Assembly: GCA_049304035.1 (NCBI GenBank)
Contig: JBAQNR010000007.1
Coordinates: forward strand, 4,548 to 68,547
Reading direction: 5' to 3'
Length of the DNA stretch: 64,000 nucleotides
From: Microgenomates group bacterium
GTDB lineage: Bacteria; Patescibacteriota; Microgenomatia; UBA1406; GWC2-37-13
Within the stretch, counting starts at the first letter, position 1, and the number at the start of each line of letters is the position of its first letter. Of the stretch, positions 4,589-36,256 are shown piece after piece. The position numbers and the translations under genes were made by a program. The notes under the pieces are model-generated. The model saw only the letters and a program-made list of their open reading frames with translations, did no database searches and was not told the origin of the DNA.

Positions 4589-5586
4589 CAGTCTATCCAA
4601 AATGTGTGGCAATGGGGACAATGCGTTCCACATGGAAACTCATTCAGATAATACGTATTTCTGTGTCTCCGCATATCCATATCCATTGGAGTACACCCAC
4701 CTTTTTCAAATGTTTCCTTATATCTTTTTTCTCTTGCTAATTCTTCCGCATAAGATTCATTTACCTTTGCCTTTTTTGCTGACGTTTTCTTTTTTCTAAA
4801 AGAAATTCCCGTTCCATCACACCAGTTTGTGGACATTCCACAAACTTCATACGTGTATGAATACTTCACTTCCTTATCGATAAAAAAGTTCTTAATCTCA
4901 AACGGAATTGCAAACTTATGCCCAACCAACTGGCAATTGTCACCCGCCCCATTCCAAGTGTCAATAATTGCAATATTTGGATTTGTAAATTCAACAACAT
5001 TCTTATCAGACAAATGCATCATCTCATTAATGTCACCGGTAAAATAAATCACCAATCTTCCGTTGTCACCTTGACGAATCATCATGTCAATGTCATTATC
5101 CCATTTTGTTTCTTTCAGCGGGATTTTTAATGCTTTCTTGATTTGTTTGCACATTTTATCAACTTCGTCTTGGTCTGATAAGCATCCGTCATAAAATTCT
5201 TCGCCAGTATCATAAAACATTACAATATCCCTTGTGTTTCTGATTAAATCTTTTATTGGGTCGGACTCGTCCCTATCCATAATAACATCCCGAAGATTTT
5301 CCCAGTGTTCTTCCATTAACTCTTCCGCTTCTTCTTCGGTTATGTCGAATTCTTTTTCAATTTCGTCCTTCAATTCTTTTGCAATAAAATCTAAACTATC
5401 GCATTGACATTCCCAAAACCAATCATCGCAATTTTGGTCAATATGACACCAGTCTTGTGTTCTTATTGCTTCCGCGACACTTTCCAGACTATCATCTAAA
5501 TTGCTTCGATAATCAACATAAATCAAATCATAAGACTTATTCAACAATTTTTCAATATCTTCGTAAGTAATTTCCTTAGTTTCCAT
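4588..5586 (-). CDS. hypothetical protein (332 aa), C-terminal CxxC/HCxHC cluster
   Basis: track ORF trimmed to ATG 5586 with AAAGGAGAT SD; no family recognised. Confidence 0.7.
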   Translation of the reverse strand: METKEITYEDIEKLLNKSYDLIYVDYRSNLDDSLESVAEAIRTQDWCHIDQNCDDWFWECQCDSLDFIAKELKDEIEKEFDITEEEAEELMEEHWENLRDVIMDRDESDPIKDLIRNTRDIVMFYDTGEEFYDGCLSDQDEVDKMCKQIKKALKIPLKETKWDNDIDMMIRQGDNGRLVIYFTGDINEMMHLSDKNVVEFTNPNIAIIDTWNGAGDNCQLVGHKFAIPFEIKNFFIDKEVKYSYTYEVCGMSTNWCDGTGISFRKKKTSAKKAKVNESYAEELAREKRYKETFEKGGCTPMDMDMRRHRNTYYLNEFPCGTHCPHCHTFWID

Positions 5587-11442: not shown

Positions 11443-11631
11443 CTATTCCTTTAACCATTTTCCAGAAATCAATTCTTCAAATTTTTCTTCGCACCGCAAA
11501 TGCAAGCGATATGCCCTTGGAAAATTAATAAATTTTTGCAACCAATTTCCCTCATATAAAAGTTTGTGAACCTCCAATTGCATATTCTCCAATTCCTTGA
11601 ATTTTTTGTCGATTTCCTCTGCGTCCGTCAT
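11443..11631 (-). CDS. hypothetical protein (62 aa)
   Basis: track ORF; AAAGGAGAAAA SD. Confidence 0.6.
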   Translation of the reverse strand: MTDAEEIDKKFKELENMQLEVHKLLYEGNWLQKFINFPRAYRLHLRCEEKFEELISGKWLKE

Positions 11632-11652
11632 ATTTTCTCCTTTTGTTTAATT

Positions 11653-11717
11653 ATATAATAATCTTACCATAAAAGCCAATAACCGTCAAGTTATTGGCTC
11701 ATAAGCAGATTATACTA
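11653..11717 (-). promoter_or_regulatory. PeSL-like class I: stem-loop with -35 in loop plus extended -10 promoter
   Basis: minus strand TTGACG (11689-11684), 17 nt, TGgTAAGAT (-10 at 11666-11661); 10-bp arms 11674-11683/11690-11699, followed by TTTTA on the minus strand. Confidence 0.7.
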
Positions 11718-26292: not shown

Positions 26293-26325
26293 TTTATATT
26301 CTCCTGTTTTTTATTAGAATTAGAA

Positions 26326-26387
26326 TCACTTATAGATTCTCATAGATATTTTATTTTTATAAACTACCTATGAGAGTCTATAAGTGA
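26326..26387. promoter_or_regulatory. 20-bp inverted repeat upstream of the first leftward gene (operator/control hairpin candidate)
   Basis: tcacttatagattctcatag (26326-26345) / ctatgagagtctataagtga (26368-26387), 1 mismatch, 22-nt AT loop. Confidence 0.5.
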
Positions 26388-26446
26388 CATATAACACCTT
26401 GTACTATTATTGCAGTGTTATCTTATAAACTCTCGTGAATAATACA

Positions 26447-26474
26447 TTGACTATATACGATAACTTTTTATAAT
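26447..26474 (+). promoter_or_regulatory. sigma70-type promoter (plus strand)
   Basis: TTGACT (26447-26452), 16 nt, TATAAT (26469-26474). Confidence 0.5.
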
Positions 26475-26766
26475 ACCCGTATAAACTTCTTTCAGGCGTC
26501 CACTTTGAATTATCTATTTTTATATGTAACGGGATTTATTTATTCGATGTTATGTGCGCCGAATAATTCCTATACATCAATAGTTTATTCAAGAACCTTA
26601 CTCGTTATTTATTTTCTTTTTATTGGGAAGTTTGAAACGTATACAGAAAATTGTATTATATATGTGATTTTATTTTTATCTGGTATAAACACGGATTATT
26701 ATATAAAATCTAATTTTTAGGATAATACTAGAAAATATTAATCTTTTTTTGTTATCCACGTTATTT

Positions 26767-26810
26767 GTTAATAAAAGAATACCCCACCCGTTATAACGGG
26801 TGGGGTATTC
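26767..26810 (-). terminator. strong rho-independent terminator (minus strand; possibly bidirectional)
   Basis: perfect 14-bp GC-containing stem 26777-26790/26797-26810, followed by UUUUAUU on the minus strand; 24 nt after stop of 26834-27241. Confidence 0.8.
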
Positions 26811-26833
26811 TGTTTCACTTCTTGCGGGTTGTG

Positions 26834-27241
26834 CTACTTGCTCTGTTTCGCAACCTTGCTCGCTTGTAAGGCTGTTGCGCGTGCGTGAGTTTCACGAATG
26901 GCTTGACGTTCGGCCAGCTTTTGGGCAATTTTCTTGTCACGTGATTCACGTACAAGAACACTTGCCAGTTGATTGAAATTAACTTTCTTTACGCTGTTAA
27001 TGCGTTTCTGGAGTGTTTCAAGACCGTTAACAATCATGCGGGCGTAAATTTGACCTTGCGCGAATTCGAGAGTATTCTCTTTCGCATCGCTGAAAGAAAG
27101 ATAACCCGCGACATTGACACGCACTTCTTTCACTTTGCGAGTGAAGATTGTATCATTTCGGCCTTTCTCACTTGCGCTTGCAATGAGTGATTCAATCTTC
27201 GCATTTACTTCACTTTCATTCAATACTAAATTCTGTTTCAT
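26834..27241 (-). CDS. orphan hypothetical protein (135 aa) with basic Ala/Lys/Gln-rich C-terminal tail
   Basis: track ORF trimmed to ATG 27241 (AAAGGATAA SD); visibly GC-richer than its very AT-rich surroundings; own terminator. Confidence 0.65.
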   Translation of the reverse strand: MKQNLVLNESEVNAKIESLIASASEKGRNDTIFTRKVKEVRVNVAGYLSFSDAKENTLEFAQGQIYARMIVNGLETLQKRINSVKKVNFNQLASVLVRESRDKKIAQKLAERQAIRETHARATALQASKVAKQSK

Positions 27242-27454
27242 GTCTATTATCCTTTGCTTATATCCGTTTGTGTCATTGACACATACTATAATGCGGATAT
27301 TCGCTTTAACACAGAGAATTAACATTCTCTGATATTATCCTAAAAATTATGTTTTGGCTATTCCGTTTTATCAGATATGTCTTGCATCCGTTGAATCGCC
27401 TATGTGAGACAATATTATCATGTAAAGCGTTGATCAAACGTACCAGTTGCCACA

Positions 27455-27472
27455 CCTTACAATATTGTAAGG
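27455..27472. promoter_or_regulatory. perfect 18-bp palindrome (operator-like)
   Basis: ccttacaatattgtaagg. Confidence 0.5.
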
Positions 27473-27566
27473 TAGTACATTTATTAAGGTAGGGCTATTG
27501 ACATATTATATTTTATGCCGGTGTATATTGTACTAATTGTATCATGCTGCGCTGCGTTTATATATG

Positions 27567-27654
27567 TTTATTTAGGTTAGACTAAATTATTATTTAGCTT
27601 ATACTTATTATTTATTTAGTCTATGCTTATTGTTTATTTAGTTATATATAACTA
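27567..27654. repeat. four tandem 22-bp iterons (TTTATTTAG-N13), replication-origin candidate
   Basis: (T/A)TTATTTAG cores at 27567, 27589, 27611, 27633: exact 22-bp phasing. Confidence 0.65.
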
Positions 27655-27820
27655 GTTAACAACAAAATAAAATCTAAAATTATAAACCTGTGCAAAACAT
27701 AGACAAAATAAATCATAACATATTAGAATTGTCAATGGGCAAAATATAAATTTATAAATTGATACTTGACAGATATATAATACTATGGTGATACCGGTAT
27801 AGTCATATAACTATATAGAT

Positions 27821-27841
27821 ATACTAATAAATTATTAGTAT
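27821..27841. repeat. perfect 21-bp palindrome
   Basis: atactaataa-a-ttattagtat. Confidence 0.5.
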
Positions 27842-27897
27842 AGTTTACATACTAGTAGTAAGTTGATAGTAGCCAGGTGCCTATAGTTACTCAACTC

Positions 27898-27933
27898 ACA
27901 CATAATAAAATAACAAAACACATAATAAAATAA
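27898..27933. repeat. 16-bp direct repeat x2
   Basis: acacataataaaataa at 27898-27913 and 27918-27933. Confidence 0.6.
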
Positions 27934-28210
27934 ACTCAAAAAATACTAAAAATAATCATATAGACTATATATGAACCAAGAAGATTACCAATAGAAACTG
28001 CCAACACTTTGCCAATAGTTTTACATAATCAGAGAATACATATCCGAATATACATACTCCGTCAGAATATCGAAGTACCTATATGTAGACCAATAATATC
28101 CGAATAGAATTAATTGCCAATACAAAAAATAAAACCTAACACAAACAAAAAAATATTTTACAACCATGCTCAACACATAAACAAGATAAGCATTGTCGTA
28201 ATTGACCAGT

Positions 28211-28240
28211 AAAAATAAAAAGAGGTCGAATACGAACCTC
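28211..28240 (-). terminator. rho-independent terminator (minus strand)
   Basis: GAGGUU...GACCUC stem (28222-28240, G.U only on minus RNA), followed by UUUUUAUUUUU. Confidence 0.55.
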
Positions 28241-28667
28241 AAAAATAAAATAAACAATATAGACTATATCAATATAAAACTTGTGATAAATCTGAATAAT
28301 ATCAAAAAAGTCATATTACCGTATAAACAATAGGATAACAGTTTACATTCGGCATATTTGATAAATCCATGGATTTGCAGGTATAAATTTAAGTGTTCTG
28401 GCTCCGCCATGTTTCATACCTTTAATGGAAGGTTATTTTGGTTTTTTCCAGTATGACTAAATTTTGCATTGTTTTCCACAACACTATGAAAACTCTTTAT
28501 CTGGGGCAAATTTGAACTTCAATTTTCAACGTATAATGTAAACATGGGGAAATCATTGTACAGCAACATAAACTCAACCTTGAGGCTCCTGTTGACTTTC
28601 AATGGAACAACTAGGACTTACAAGGTATTATTACGGAGGAGATAAACTTTGTCCTATTTATATTAAC

Positions 28668-28699
28668 AAAAAAAGACACCTCGATTTGAGATGTCTTTT
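28668..28699 (-). terminator. rho-independent terminator of the helicase operon (minus strand)
   Basis: 11-bp stem 28672-28682/28688-28698 (G.U on minus RNA), followed by UUUUUUUG; about 125 nt after the helicase stop. Confidence 0.65.
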
Positions 28700-28824
28700 A
28701 AGGGGTGGAGCAAGTTGTCTAGATGCGTTATACTCGACATTTATCAATAGTATATATATAATAATATAGTTAACTTATGACAGATGTCGAAAATAACGCA
28801 GATGTGTTCCTTCGCGTATTCTGA

Positions 28825-30282
28825 CTATTTTGTATTCGGACTATCCTTATCCACAATCATCCACCACCTCTTATGTCTATCTTCACCTTTCGTTTCCTGT
28901 TCGGATATGAGTTCCAGGGGTATTCCGTCTTCGGCTATGATTGAGTTGATACTGTTGATTCCTCTATTCCTGTAGTTTGTATTCTTGGGGGAGAATATGA
29001 GATAAAAGAACTTGTCCTTGAATGTTTCCTGCTCACTCTTGAACATCTTGATGTTCTTCTTGGATAGCAGGAACTCCGCCAGTCCTATGATTTCAAACTG
29101 TTTGTCGGCGTTCTCTTCGTCATCCTCCCATTTGGCTTGAAAGTATTCCACCAGATACTTCTTGTACCCATTGTATTCTTTCATGACCTTTTCAAGAAAA
29201 TCAACCTGATAGGAATAGTTATAGTATTTTGCTTTGTTGATGTTGAAGTCATTGTCCACAATATCATCGAACATTGCCTTTCTATGTTTCTGCTGGAACT
29301 CCTCTTCCCCGAACTGTTCCCTTTCTTCAGCAATATCCAGTTTCATCTTAAGGCTCCCCAGATGATAGTTCAACTCTCTGTTGTGGTGGTTCTTAACAAA
29401 CACCCTTATCTTATCATTCTCGTTCAGGATGCGTTTTCTACCTAACGCTTGAATAAGAGTAATCGGATTGATAAAGTCCAATATGATTGTTTTTACCGAT
29501 TCGTCACAGATGGATATTCCATTTTCCATAACCTTTGTGGTGCAGAGTATTCTTGCAGAAAAGTATTGATTCTCAATGATTTCCTTTTCTGTATTCTGGT
29601 CGGAATATTTATAGAACTCCTTATTGGATTCTGCACAAATAAAAACCGCATCATCGAAACTCTGAGATAGCGCCAACGCCTCTGCCGCACTCGAAGAAAA
29701 ATATATTGCTTTTTCCTCATGTTCCAGGTTTTGTAGGATTGCTTCTGGCGTCCTGTCTTTATAGTAAAACGACAGGGATGAGATATAAGAATAATCCTTT
29801 TCTGCTGTATAGATAAAATCAAACTTGTTTCCAGCGAATAGGGACATCTCTGGTGTAGCTGAAATAAAAACAAATATCTTGTTGGGATAGTCTGTTTCGA
29901 ATATGTCCAGCAGCAGGTCTGTATTCCTATTGAAATCAGAGTCGGCATAGATATAGTGGAACTCATCACATACAATTGCATCAAACTTTGAAAATAAATA
30001 CTGGAGGTCTTCCCTTGTCTCAAGTATTCCATTCTCAATAGACTGGTAATTTCTTACAGTGATGAAATCAGCCTTTTCACGGATGTCTTCTATGATTTGA
30101 TTTTTTAACAGCGTCCTATTTGAAAGAATAAGAATTCTCTTGTTGTTTCTTAAGCACCATTCATACAGAGTATTCTTCGTCCAGTAACTTTTGCCGGTTC
30201 CCGTTTGAGCAGAGATAAGAACCTTCTTTCCTATCCAACTATCAATCTCGCCTATTGGAATTATGTCTGATATATATTTCAT
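28825..30282 (-). CDS. SF2 DEAD/DEAH-box-type helicase
   Basis: Walker A AQTGTGKSYW, DExH box VCDEFHY, FISATP, motif VI QALGRKRI; start set to ATG 30282 (ATGA coupling with the upstream gene). Confidence 0.8.
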   Translation of the reverse strand: MKYISDIIPIGEIDSWIGKKVLISAQTGTGKSYWTKNTLYEWCLRNNKRILILSNRTLLKNQIIEDIREKADFITVRNYQSIENGILETREDLQYLFSKFDAIVCDEFHYIYADSDFNRNTDLLLDIFETDYPNKIFVFISATPEMSLFAGNKFDFIYTAEKDYSYISSLSFYYKDRTPEAILQNLEHEEKAIYFSSSAAEALALSQSFDDAVFICAESNKEFYKYSDQNTEKEIIENQYFSARILCTTKVMENGISICDESVKTIILDFINPITLIQALGRKRILNENDKIRVFVKNHHNRELNYHLGSLKMKLDIAEEREQFGEEEFQQKHRKAMFDDIVDNDFNINKAKYYNYSYQVDFLEKVMKEYNGYKKYLVEYFQAKWEDDEENADKQFEIIGLAEFLLSKKNIKMFKSEQETFKDKFFYLIFSPKNTNYRNRGINSINSIIAEDGIPLELISEQETKGEDRHKRWWMIVDKDSPNTK

Positions 30283-30611
30283 TCTTTGGTTATACCCCAA
30301 GTCCAATCTTCTTTTGTTTGAAATGTGTGCAAAATTATTTTATATGGTAAATTTCTTTCTTTCAAAAATCTTTCGACAACAGCAATGCTATAACCAGAAA
30401 AATCAAATCTTTTTCCTGTAACAAACTGCTCGGAAATCAATTTCACAAATTCGCCAAGTTCTTCTTTGGTGTGAGTATATCCATATTCCATGGAACACTC
30501 CCACATATCTAAGACATCGATAATCCTACTTTGTTCCAGATGCTTAAGTTCATCTATGTCCAGTTTGACATCATACTTTCTATCCAGCATCTTACCATTC
30601 TTTTTATACAT
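30279..30611 (-). CDS. hypothetical protein (110 aa), first gene of the helicase operon
   Basis: track ORF; CAGGAGGAATAA SD. Confidence 0.65.
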   Translation of the reverse strand: MYKKNGKMLDRKYDVKLDIDELKHLEQSRIIDVLDMWECSMEYGYTHTKEELGEFVKLISEQFVTGKRFDFSGYSIAVVERFLKERNLPYKIILHTFQTKEDWTWGITKE

Positions 30612-30719: not shown

Positions 30720-30748
30720 ATTATATCATACTATTCTTTTTAAGTCAA
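30720..30748 (-). promoter_or_regulatory. consensus extended -10 promoter (minus strand)
   Basis: TTGACT (30748-30743), 17 nt incl. TGa, TATAAT (30725-30720). Confidence 0.75.
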
Positions 30749-30791
30749 TACCATATAAGACCCAAATAGTCCAAATTACGATATATGGGGC

Positions 30792-30820
30792 TTGACAAAT
30801 AATATATTTAATGATATAAT
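30792..30820 (+). promoter_or_regulatory. consensus extended -10 promoter (plus strand)
   Basis: TTGACA (30792-30797), 17 nt incl. TGa, TATAAT (30815-30820). Confidence 0.75.
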
Positions 30821-33616: not shown

Positions 33617-36256
33617 TTGCGGAAACTACAGCAGTTTTATATCATGTCGTTGCAATCTGCAAGAATCAAGAAGGTTGGAAAAATAGTTTCAACACTTCAA
33701 GATGCGAGAAAAAATAACGAGATTATTTCTGCGGGCGACTCCCAGTTATTTCGGACGTTGAGAAAGGTGTCTAATCACCCCTATGAGGAATCCGAACTGT
33801 TGCGGTTGTGGAATGAAAGAACAAGATTAAAGAAAAAGAAAAACAAAAAAGAGAACGTAAGCAGGATGTCCGAACTTACCTCAAAGATTGACGAGATGTT
33901 ATTTGTTCCAGAGATTGTTTCCATAACCTTCAATCACGTTGCACACTACAAGCAATTTGTGAAAGAGGGCGTGTGGATAAATGGAACAAAATTTGTCCGA
34001 TTTATGGGTAGTGCGGGGCAATTGAGGCGTTCAACCGTCCTTTTTATTCAAGAACAATATTTGGAAAAGGTAAGAGAGATTATCGAGAACGGGTTCAATA
34101 AAGAGGTTCCAGTAAATTTTGGGAAGTTCAATGCGTACTACTCGCTGGTTTCAAGCAGTAGTATTCCTGTCTCGACGCCCAACTACGTTGTCATTCCAGA
34201 TTTGGAAGAAACAAGAGATACTGAGGTTGACTTTGTTGAAGACGACAATGAAACAGTAAACAGAAAAGTTCTTCCCATCGTTCACAATCTTTTTGATGGT
34301 GCTGGAATTATCTCCATGGATTTTGCAAAGCAATGGAGTTTCGATTTAGGATTGGATTATGATGCGTGTTCTTTTATTTTCAGGGCTCCTTGGTGCAAGG
34401 GTCTGTTGACTTCGTTTCCTTTTAGGACACTTGCTGCTGAACTCGGAGTTTCAGAGATTACCGATATTTATGGGGATGTTCACCAGATAGACAACGTTGA
34501 TGTTGTTATGACAAAATCCCAGTTTAAACTGAGTGAGGGGTATTCTTCTATTGCTGAACACAAAACAAACTCCCTAGAGAACAATCTATCTTGGAACGTT
34601 ACAAGAGTCAATCCGAATAAAGACAAAAAATCTTTTATGAGTTCCTACCAGTATATTCAGGTTCTCAAGGATGACGTAGATATAGAAAAACTATGCCGAC
34701 CAACATTGGACTACTTCAATGATGTGTCAATTTTGGACGGAGAAAAAGCGCTAATCTATTTGATGGGTTCTGATATAGAAGACGACTTGAAGTTCAACAA
34801 AATAGAAAATCCGATAGTGAAAGCGCTGTGTTTGAACAAAGATGTGATTCAAGACCCCCACATTAGAAAATCGATTATAAAAAGTCTCAACAGAAAGATA
34901 CGAGATAGTTACTTCGGAAAACTCCTGATAAGCCCAGGAAATTATCAGTTTGTTTTGTTTGACCCCTATGCGATAGCGCAACACGCCTTCGGGTTCGAGG
35001 CAACTGGTCTTTTGGGTGCAGGAGAGCATTATTCACAATACTGGAATAACATGGGCTCAAATCAGGTTGTTGCAGGCAGAAGTCCTTTGACATGGCGCTC
35101 AGAGATGTTGAGGTTGGACTTCAAGAACAACCAGAAGATGGAGAAATATTTTGGGCATCTGTATAGTGGAATAGTGTTTAATGTTCATTCGCCAGATATG
35201 ATGTGCCTTGCGGACGGAGATGGGGACGGAGACGCAGTATTCACATCCGATAATGACGAATTGTTGAAGAACTGTTATGGCGGGGTTCCTGTGACATACA
35301 ACAGAAAGGCGACAACAAAGAATAAAATTTCATACGATGAGTTGTCGGTTTTTGATGCAATGAGTTTTAATTCAAAGATTGGTCTGGTAACGAACAACAG
35401 TAGCACATACTATTCCATGTTGTCTTTATTTCCAGAAGATTCCAAAGAACACCAACTAATTCTAAAGAGACTTGTTATTTGCAGAAAGCAACAGGGAATG
35501 GAAATCGATAAAACAAAAGGTCTTCTTATCGACAGACTCCCAGAATGGAATAAGAAATCAGACGACCCAGTTCACAACAACATCCTGACAAATCGAAGAC
35601 CAATGTGGATGAACTGGCTCTACCCCCATAGAAAGAAAGATTACGACTCCTATAATGAAATGTACGATGTTTATTGCTACGCCAAATACGGGTTCGGTAT
35701 AGACTTTTTATTGAAGAAGGAAGTCGTCACAGAAGAGCAATCAAAAATTATAGAAAGACATAGGAAGTTTTGTCCAGTGGTTGTTGGTTCAACCTCTATA
35801 ATGCAGAGGATTTCAGATTACATGGTTTCAGAGGTAAAAGAACTTAAGGTGTCGGTAAACAACAAAGAATTTGACTATTCGGTATATTTCGATAAATCGG
35901 TTGGTCTAAACGAATCTATTCGTGAACCGCTAAGAGACTTGATGAAATTATATAATAAGTTGAAAAAGAACCTGTTCTTCTCTCCAGACGGAGAAAAATC
36001 GGAAATCGTAGAGTTCATAAAGAACAAGGCTTTTGAAATAAGTTCAGACTTGTCCGAATTGACCAATATGGCTCTGGATATAAACTATGGAACGGGATAC
36101 TCTCAGTCATTCGTGTGGGAAATATTTTCCGATGGAATATTGGACGCCATGAAAAAGAAAACCAGGACTTTTGATTTTCCTGTCCCAAAGGAAAACGGAA
36201 GGATTTCGTTTGCCGGAAGAAGGTTCAACATGGTAAAAGGTGGTGTCGATGAGTAA
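33617..36256 (+). CDS. YonO/RdRP-like two-barrel single-subunit RNA polymerase
   Basis: FIFRAPWCKGLL (compare FQIRxxGxKGvv of DPBB1 in cellular RdRPs) and VVAGRSPLTWRSE...IVFNVHSPDMMCLADGDGDGDAVFTS (compare RxPxxxxGD...DxDGD catalytic loop, related to beta-prime NADFDGD); AGGAGG SD 10 nt before TTG 33617. Confidence 0.7.
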   Translation: MRKLQQFYIMSLQSARIKKVGKIVSTLQDARKNNEIISAGDSQLFRTLRKVSNHPYEESELLRLWNERTRLKKKKNKKENVSRMSELTSKIDEMLFVPEIVSITFNHVAHYKQFVKEGVWINGTKFVRFMGSAGQLRRSTVLFIQEQYLEKVREIIENGFNKEVPVNFGKFNAYYSLVSSSSIPVSTPNYVVIPDLEETRDTEVDFVEDDNETVNRKVLPIVHNLFDGAGIISMDFAKQWSFDLGLDYDACSFIFRAPWCKGLLTSFPFRTLAAELGVSEITDIYGDVHQIDNVDVVMTKSQFKLSEGYSSIAEHKTNSLENNLSWNVTRVNPNKDKKSFMSSYQYIQVLKDDVDIEKLCRPTLDYFNDVSILDGEKALIYLMGSDIEDDLKFNKIENPIVKALCLNKDVIQDPHIRKSIIKSLNRKIRDSYFGKLLISPGNYQFVLFDPYAIAQHAFGFEATGLLGAGEHYSQYWNNMGSNQVVAGRSPLTWRSEMLRLDFKNNQKMEKYFGHLYSGIVFNVHSPDMMCLADGDGDGDAVFTSDNDELLKNCYGGVPVTYNRKATTKNKISYDELSVFDAMSFNSKIGLVTNNSSTYYSMLSLFPEDSKEHQLILKRLVICRKQQGMEIDKTKGLLIDRLPEWNKKSDDPVHNNILTNRRPMWMNWLYPHRKKDYDSYNEMYDVYCYAKYGFGIDFLLKKEVVTEEQSKIIERHRKFCPVVVGSTSIMQRISDYMVSEVKELKVSVNNKEFDYSVYFDKSVGLNESIREPLRDLMKLYNKLKKNLFFSPDGEKSEIVEFIKNKAFEISSDLSELTNMALDINYGTGYSQSFVWEIFSDGILDAMKKKTRTFDFPVPKENGRISFAGRRFNMVKGGVDE

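Follow-up and report, generated by a model that had tools for sequence, protein, structure and literature searches.

A repeat-rich, largely gene-free region with a candidate iteron origin in an uncultured SPbeta-like phage

Genome and locus

The region considered here (26293-28824) belongs to an uncultured, 131-kb, SPbeta-like phage represented by contig C7 (130,778 bp), and the window analyzed is the 64,000-nt stretch at positions 4548-68547 of that contig, to which all coordinates below refer unless marked C7. C7 begins and ends with the same 21 bases (window -4546 and 126231), giving a circular assembly and a genome of ~130,757 bp. This complete phage genome had been binned with a 1.3-Mb bacterial genome. 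It encodes a YonO/RdRP-type single-subunit RNA polymerase at 33617-36256 (Pfam RdRP, E = 7e-16) and a terminase with 38% identity to SPbeta YonF and 42% to the terminase of Thomasclavelia phage TR-TP1.

Genes run rightward from ~30.8 kb to ~81 kb and leftward everywhere else. The region lies inside the leftward arm, with an SF2 DEAD-box helicase gene (28825-30306, minus strand; operon 28825-30611) upstream and an array of small early genes downstream. A previous sequence-only reading had described it as a divergence region; both flanks carry minus-strand genes, however, and the only divergent switch of the genome, with consensus promoters back to back, is at 30720-30820. The same reading presumed a replicative helicase operon next door, whereas the neighbor is an SF2 enzyme and the replicative genes are remote, Pol III alpha being encoded at C7 92484-95654 and a DnaG-DnaB fusion at C7 103353-105347. 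Because these genes are 60-70 kb away, the neighboring helicase is no evidence for an origin.

Anatomy of the region

With genes counted as open reading frames (ORFs) of at least 50 aa on the coding strand, the three longest uncovered stretches of the 130.8-kb genome (808, 695 and 567 bp) all fall here, the next being 341 bp. The description of the region as nearly ORF-free breaks down for one 135-aa gene (26834-27241, minus strand), although the longest ORF-free gaps are nevertheless here. "Extremely AT-rich" proved an overstatement, the GC content being 31.0% for the whole region and 25% for 27500-28340, compared with 33% for the early arm and 36% genome-wide, a moderate difference. Four of the 12 perfect even palindromes of at least 14 bp in the genome are concentrated in these 1.9% of its length, and of the three arrays scoring at least 50 with Tandem Repeats Finder in 130.8 kb, the sole one with at least three copies is at 27567-27646. 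This clustering of features far exceeds chance expectation. The cumulative GC skew has its minimum at ~26-31 kb. All of the repeats, palindromes, terminators and the promoter-like site that had been read from the sequence are present, within 1-2 bases of where they had been placed. The elements on which the interpretation turns are the following.

27567-27654, no strand: iteron array of 22-bp repeats in 3.7 copies (27567-27646), with a 16-bp perfect palindrome at its end (27639-27654)
27695-27718, no strand: inverted iteron-like copy
27557-27956, no strand: least stable duplex DNA of the 130.8-kb genome at the 100-, 200- and 400-bp scales, overlapping the iterons
27312-27331: 8-bp inverted repeat
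27454-27473, no strand: perfect 20-bp palindrome ACCTTACAATATTGTAAGGT
27820-27842, no strand: 23-nt odd palindrome TATACTAATAA-A-TTATTAGTATA
27845-27905, minus strand: conserved block, in which the 19-mer TGTGTGAGTTGAGTAACTA (27884-27902) is identical in the closest relative, L001
27898-27933, no strand: two identical 16-mers ACACATAATAAAATAA, at 27898 and 27918, 20 bp apart
27958 and 28258: ATATAGACTATAT, repeated
27985-27993, 27998-28006, 28009-28017 and 28114-28122, minus strand: cluster of TATTGGCAA-type boxes

The four TTATTTAG cores of the array (27568, 27590, 27612 and 27634) are spaced by exactly 22 bp, and they account for four of the 11 copies of this sequence in the whole genome. 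An unwinding prediction, which the sequence-only reading had proposed as a check, placed the least stable DNA of the genome at 27557-27956, a candidate unwinding element. Two of the palindromes are real but had been read too short, as 18 rather than 20 bp and, for the odd one, as 21 rather than 23 nt.

Conservation in relatives

The helicase has many metagenomic homologs, the closest being 58% identical. In at least ten relatives, a gene-free stretch of 1.0-2.1 kb follows it, either directly or past one or two small genes.

L001: gap of 1.9 kb
L002: gap of 1.4 kb
L006: gap of 2.1 kb
L008: gap of 1.9 kb
L009: gap of 1.0 kb
L016: gap of 1.4 kb
L024: gap of 1.6 kb
L025: gap of 1.8 kb
L087: gap of 1.4 kb
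L089/L090: gap of 1.5 kb

The sequence-only reading would have been refuted had the region been absent or variable in relatives; a gap of similar kind is instead conserved. Most of these gaps have tandem repeats of their own, with periods of 20-28 bp, or of 37-39 and 75-93 bp, and when loci of 10-21 kb were compared, the 100 bp of lowest stability fell in the gap for nine of ten relatives, in many cases at its repeat array. The first gene past the gap differs from relative to relative, and these genes are mutually non-homologous. The gaps do not align as wholes and share only short elements, and a tblastn comparison of six-frame pieces of at least 20 aa against all loci gave no real conserved small ORF.

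Among the short elements, TGTGTGAGTTGAGTAACTA matches L001 with a BLAST E value of 3e-4, partial conservation continuing downstream to TAGTATGTA over ~60 nt, and it is unique in the window even when three mismatches are allowed. Looser versions of the conserved block, of the form TGTGTGA...ACCTGG, occur in the gaps of L087 and L089, and a scan of viral contigs with an 18-mer motif returned no match. The TATTGGCAA boxes, for which the background is about one exact copy per 26 kb, also form clusters in the corresponding gaps of L001, of L089 and of L087, the last with variants besides four exact copies. The TACAATA core of ACCTTACAATATTGTAAGGT recurs in the gaps of L089, L087 (three direct copies) and L002 (at least eight copies). 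A further shared element adjoins the helicase gene.

28724-28800, minus strand: CGACAT dyad element, whose inner arms CGACAT/ATGTCG are invariant and whose outer arms covary

This dyad occurs downstream of the helicase in five lineages. In the alignment of its arms 86% of cells pair, against 75% in shuffles (one of 500 reaching 86%), and seven pairs are altered on both sides, a count that leans towards pairing because the arms were picked via a palindromic search pattern. Its loop (28734-28790) contains facing promoter-like sites, TCGACA-17-TATAAT on the plus strand and TCGACA-16-TATATT on the minus strand, and their reading as promoters is not conserved in the copies of L087 or L089. The hairpin's ATGTCGAA contains TGTCGAA, which suggested a Spo0A box; the genome has 15 perfect boxes where ~20 would be expected, and the gaps show no enrichment either, so that the idea was reduced to a weak lead.

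In 18 of 20 cases (L001, L002, L006, L025 and about 15 shorter contigs), helicase contigs reach 30-54 kb into the polymerase/late side and only 0-9 kb into the early side; evidently, the early arm of such phages is hard to assemble or highly variable. The L087 contig ends at the gap edge in a G+C-rich tandem repeat with a 36-bp unit (11470-11661), and L091 (G001) likewise ends there, at 1-110, in a G+C-rich tandem repeat of four GAGCCCTTCCCCAGAGT units. Such repeats may explain assembly breaks at this point.

A composite hub with a candidate iteron origin

On the basis of this anatomy and its conservation, we hold with moderate confidence that the region is a composite cis-acting control hub in which the iteron array is the origin of replication. 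Followed leftward, the region begins with the stop signals of the helicase operon, namely the CGACAT dyad hairpin and two terminators, and continues with a field of short putative protein-binding boxes made up of the TATTGGCAA boxes, the conserved TGTGTGAGTTGAGTAACTA block and the palindromes. Next come the four iterons, which have a phase of two helical turns and occupy the least stable DNA, and then the bracketed orphan gene and the hairpin that opens the early operon. The arrangement of these parts, its statistical singularity and its recurrence in relatives are observed, whereas a role as origin, a part in packaging and the binding of proteins are what we infer: a phage-specific initiator would bind the iterons and open the adjacent AT-rich DNA, at which replication would start, the shared boxes would bind proteins common to the lineage, and the packaging start or genome ends might also lie in the hub, as in mapped relatives.

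The anatomy favors an origin because the iterons are phased and coincide with the DNA that melts most easily in the genome, a pairing that recurs in relatives. Iteron origins are expected to have at least three direct repeats of ~17-22 bp in helical phase, and four cores at 22 bp are found here; they are also expected to have an adjacent AT-rich unwinding element, and the least stable windows overlap the array. Origins that combine iterons with an unwinding element include phage lambda ori and theta-plasmid oriV such as those of pSC101 and P1 (oriR). The present locus is like these in having three to five helix-phased direct repeats of ~20 bp with an inverted copy nearby, in placing the repeats on or next to the least stable DNA, and in a repeat sequence that varies between relatives. 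It is unlike them in that no recognizable initiator gene stands at the repeats, DnaA boxes are not enriched and the iterons are themselves extremely AT-rich.

Several observations weigh against this origin. The only gene adjoining the iterons is the 135-aa orphan, which has no recognizable initiator identity. DnaA boxes cluster at many, but not all, iteron-type origins, and the 25.5-29.5 kb interval contains four (at most one mismatch) against ~2.5 expected, with the densest clusters elsewhere. Non-coding DNA in AT-rich phages is expected to be least stable anyway, so the melting result is only partly independent, and because transcription also reverses at 30.7 kb, the GC-skew switch is a confounded signal. 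A k-mer comparison of the gaps gave no motif present in every one, the sharing being no higher than in shuffles, and the region had no DNA match to deposited phages when 50,697 phage records were searched with megablast and blastn. Finally, the mapped gap of phages Perkons and SPbeta lies directly between the polymerase arm and the early/helicase side, whereas here the helicase operon intervenes.

A perfect DnaA box, TTATCCACA, is located at 28847-28855 within the last helicase codons, 25 nt off the region. It is one of four in the genome, and no cluster surrounds it.

Transcription signals and the orphan gene

The remainder of the region is occupied by transcription signals and by the orphan gene with its flanking repeats.

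26326-26387, minus strand: long hairpin with 29-nt arms, 90% complementary, and a 4-nt loop, 34 nt upstream of the first leftward early gene
26447-26474, plus strand: rightward promoter-like site TTGACT-16-TATAAT of sigma-70 type, with 11 of 12 consensus matches
26705-26742, no strand: left arm of an inverted repeat, 38 nt, 84% complementary, with a 17-nt identical core TAATTTTTAGGATAATA
26776-26811, no strand: bidirectional intrinsic terminator, a perfect 36-bp palindrome with a 16-bp stem and nine G-C pairs
26834-27241, minus strand: 135-aa orphan gene, with ATG at 27241, an AAAGGA ribosome-binding site 8 nt before the ATG, and its own terminator
27318-27355, no strand: right arm of the inverted repeat, overlapping the 8-bp inverted repeat at 27312-27331
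28222-28240, minus strand: second minus-strand intrinsic terminator
28241-28670, minus strand: 430-nt unit between two minus-strand terminators, with higher sequence complexity and no conserved ORF
28671-28699, minus strand: intrinsic terminator of the helicase operon

The outer stem of the long hairpin (ACTTATAGA) is loosely like the hairpins that punctuate the early arm, with which it shares the position before an early gene and the ACTTATA start of the outer stem, but it is longer and lacks their CAAA/TTTG closing motif. It can also be likened to the promoter-early stem-loop (PeSL) cassettes of T4-type phages, although no clear promoter is embedded in it, and its kinship with either family is only a loose resemblance. 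No convincing minus-strand sigma-70 site that could serve the early array was found in 26388-26775, and promoter-like hits show a modest excess over shuffles (35 vs 26.4, sd 4.3).

The rightward promoter-like site and the bidirectional terminator, which ends both the orphan gene and the rightward unit, would bound a unit of ~330 nt that contains no supported ORF. Between the two lies an ORF of 71 aa (26505-26720, plus strand), or 57 aa if read from an internal ATG; its product has two hydrophobic stretches, and it lacks a ribosome-binding site and any conserved relative. Scans of the region for tRNA, tmRNA and Rfam families gave nothing meaningful. An independent assembly of the same phage, Logan contig L003 (SRR28062879), ends at approximately window position 27811, among the palindromes. 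At its positions 4884-4900 (window 28293-28312) it has six rather than seven T in a homopolymer, inside a 48-aa ORF that is the only small-ORF candidate in the 430-nt unit.

The possibility that genes had been missed in the region, which the sequence-only reading regarded as fatal to its view, turned out to be true for this one orphan gene, common to no relative. The gene had been predicted before by a public gene caller (P0002), has a GC content of 43% with GC1>GC3>GC2, and is followed, 23 nt past its stop codon, by the terminator with the 16-bp stem. Its product had no relative among 5.8 billion clustered proteins in a word-index search, gave only repeat-protein noise in a full HMMER search of 1.84 billion representatives, and matched no Pfam family and no PDB sequence; against PHROGs there was only a marginal match (E = 0.0045) of unknown function. 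The AlphaFold model (pLDDT 78) is a generic helical bundle of four helices with a basic C-terminal helix, for which no Foldseek match below E = 0.5 was obtained. The 38-nt inverted repeat, whose copies point inward and occur nowhere else in the genome, brackets the gene together with its terminator and may be an operator pair or an insertion scar. Because of this private bracket and the atypical GC content, the orphan gene looks like a self-contained inserted cassette (moron) and a later insertion.

Alternative explanations

Of the functions that had been offered for the region, an origin gained support from the analysis, a genome end or packaging site gained it by position only, and non-coding RNAs gained none. 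The main rival of the origin, or addition to it, is the tentative but serious possibility that packaging starts (pac) in the region or that the genome has its physical ends there, in the form of a short direct terminal repeat. In that case the small terminase would bind the repeats and boxes, and the early genes would lie just inside the first-entering end; an origin could reside in the hub as well, the two roles not being mutually exclusive. Position favors a packaging or terminal role because of the gaps mapped in Perkons and SPbeta. In Psychrobacillus phage Perkons (MT325768), 264-bp direct terminal repeats were mapped with PhageTerm (PMC13245101), and they fall in a gene-free stretch of ~2.1 kb directly upstream of a helicase homolog and next to the YonO arm. 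Perkons also has a YonO-type polymerase and HU, its helicase is 31% identical to that of the present phage, and in both a gene-free, repeat-rich stretch adjoins the SF2 DEAD-box helicase and heads the small early genes. The gap is downstream of the helicase here, however, but upstream of it and bordering the polymerase arm in Perkons, and a comparison of the two gave no common motif and no shared k-mer beyond AT-rich noise. In SPbeta-like phages, restriction mapping and the mapping of reads located the genome-opening point beside yonO, in the gap between yonR and yonP, with a fixed block of ~250 bp (10.1101/2021.11.22.469490; PMC8270828). The present phage is like SPbeta in its size of ~130 kb, its YonO-type polymerase, its YonF-type terminase and a single conspicuous gap in coding close to where the polymerase/late arm meets the early genes; the region is the only large gap of the genome and lies between the two arms. 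Unlike in SPbeta, the helicase operon separates this gap from the polymerase arm, the gap at the arm itself measuring 209 bp, and there is no sequence similarity to the terminal regions of either phage. A conserved terminase would be expected to retain a site of the type of the 19-mer shared with L001. In a further relative, two IMG/VR contigs (L010 and L011) have identical ends 1.39 kb upstream of the helicase, and eleven contigs of relatives stop 0-1.7 kb after it, but contig ends cluster also 6-9 kb deeper in the early arm and some lie in tandem repeats, so that repeats or strain variation explain them equally well; the clustering was therefore rejected as decisive evidence of termini. C7 itself assembles as a circle without a break in the region, its 21-bp head-tail overlap from the assembler being the only terminal repeat detected, with none in G001 or G002.

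It is unlikely, in our estimation, that the region does no more than mark a transcriptional boundary and serve accessory genes as a landing pad, with no role in replication or packaging. Its terminators would in that case insulate the helicase operon, promoters and operators of the early arm would lie here, and a variable slot would receive morons such as the 135-aa gene. Three strong terminators, several promoter-like sites, the resemblance of the 26326-26387 hairpin to those of the early arm, the atypical GC and private inverted repeat of the orphan gene, and a first gene past the gap that is non-homologous in every relative are all consistent with such a boundary. It leaves unexplained, however, the exactly phased iterons on the least stable DNA, a combination recurrent in relatives, while the lack of a convincing minus-strand promoter ahead of the early array and the number of promoter-like hits, modestly above shuffles, also speak against it. 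We consider it quite improbable that the gene-free parts encode non-coding RNAs, for which 28241-28670 (~430 nt, minus strand) and 26447-26811 (~330 nt, plus strand) would be the candidates. Promoter-like and terminator signals bound both units, the former is higher in GC and sequence complexity than its surroundings, and the T missing from the L003 assembly argues against coding in the 48-aa ORF. On the other hand, no Rfam family reached its gathering score and only hairpin and terminator noise appeared at E <= 1; the predicted folding of the 430-nt unit does not surpass that of its shuffles (z = -1.12), the z of -5.7 for the 330-nt unit is due to its terminator, and the relatives offer no alignable sequence for covariation at either candidate.

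A more far-reaching version of the composite hub can be speculated upon, to which we attach little probability. The YonO-polymerase phages of Clostridia might share a so far undescribed combined origin-and-packaging module whose parts keep a fixed order, from the helicase stop through the CGACAT dyad hairpin, the field of TATTGGCAA boxes, direct repeats rich in AT and the TGTGTGA...ACCTGG element to lineage-specific iterons located where the genome melts most readily. The non-homologous first gene past the iterons, here the helical, basic-tailed 135-aa orphan, would then be the iteron-specificity protein that binds its own iterons, and gene and iterons would be swapped as a cassette.

Implications

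Gut and soil Firmicutes commonly harbor large phages of the SPbeta-like and YonO-polymerase kinds. To our knowledge, none of these phages has a defined origin of replication, and we know of packaging starts mapped only in a few Bacillus-type isolates. The hub is like known iteron origins and like the pac or terminal regions of SPbeta-type phages; it is distinct in lying downstream of the helicase, in its undescribed shared boxes and in hosting an orphan gene. For annotation, the correction is that the region contains one real orphan gene and is not a strand-switch point. The hub narrows to a candidate of 200 bp that unites iterons and unwinding element, plus three families of short boxes that recur among relatives with helicases of only ~50% identity; origin cloning, the mapping of read starts and assays of protein-DNA binding can be aimed at these directly.

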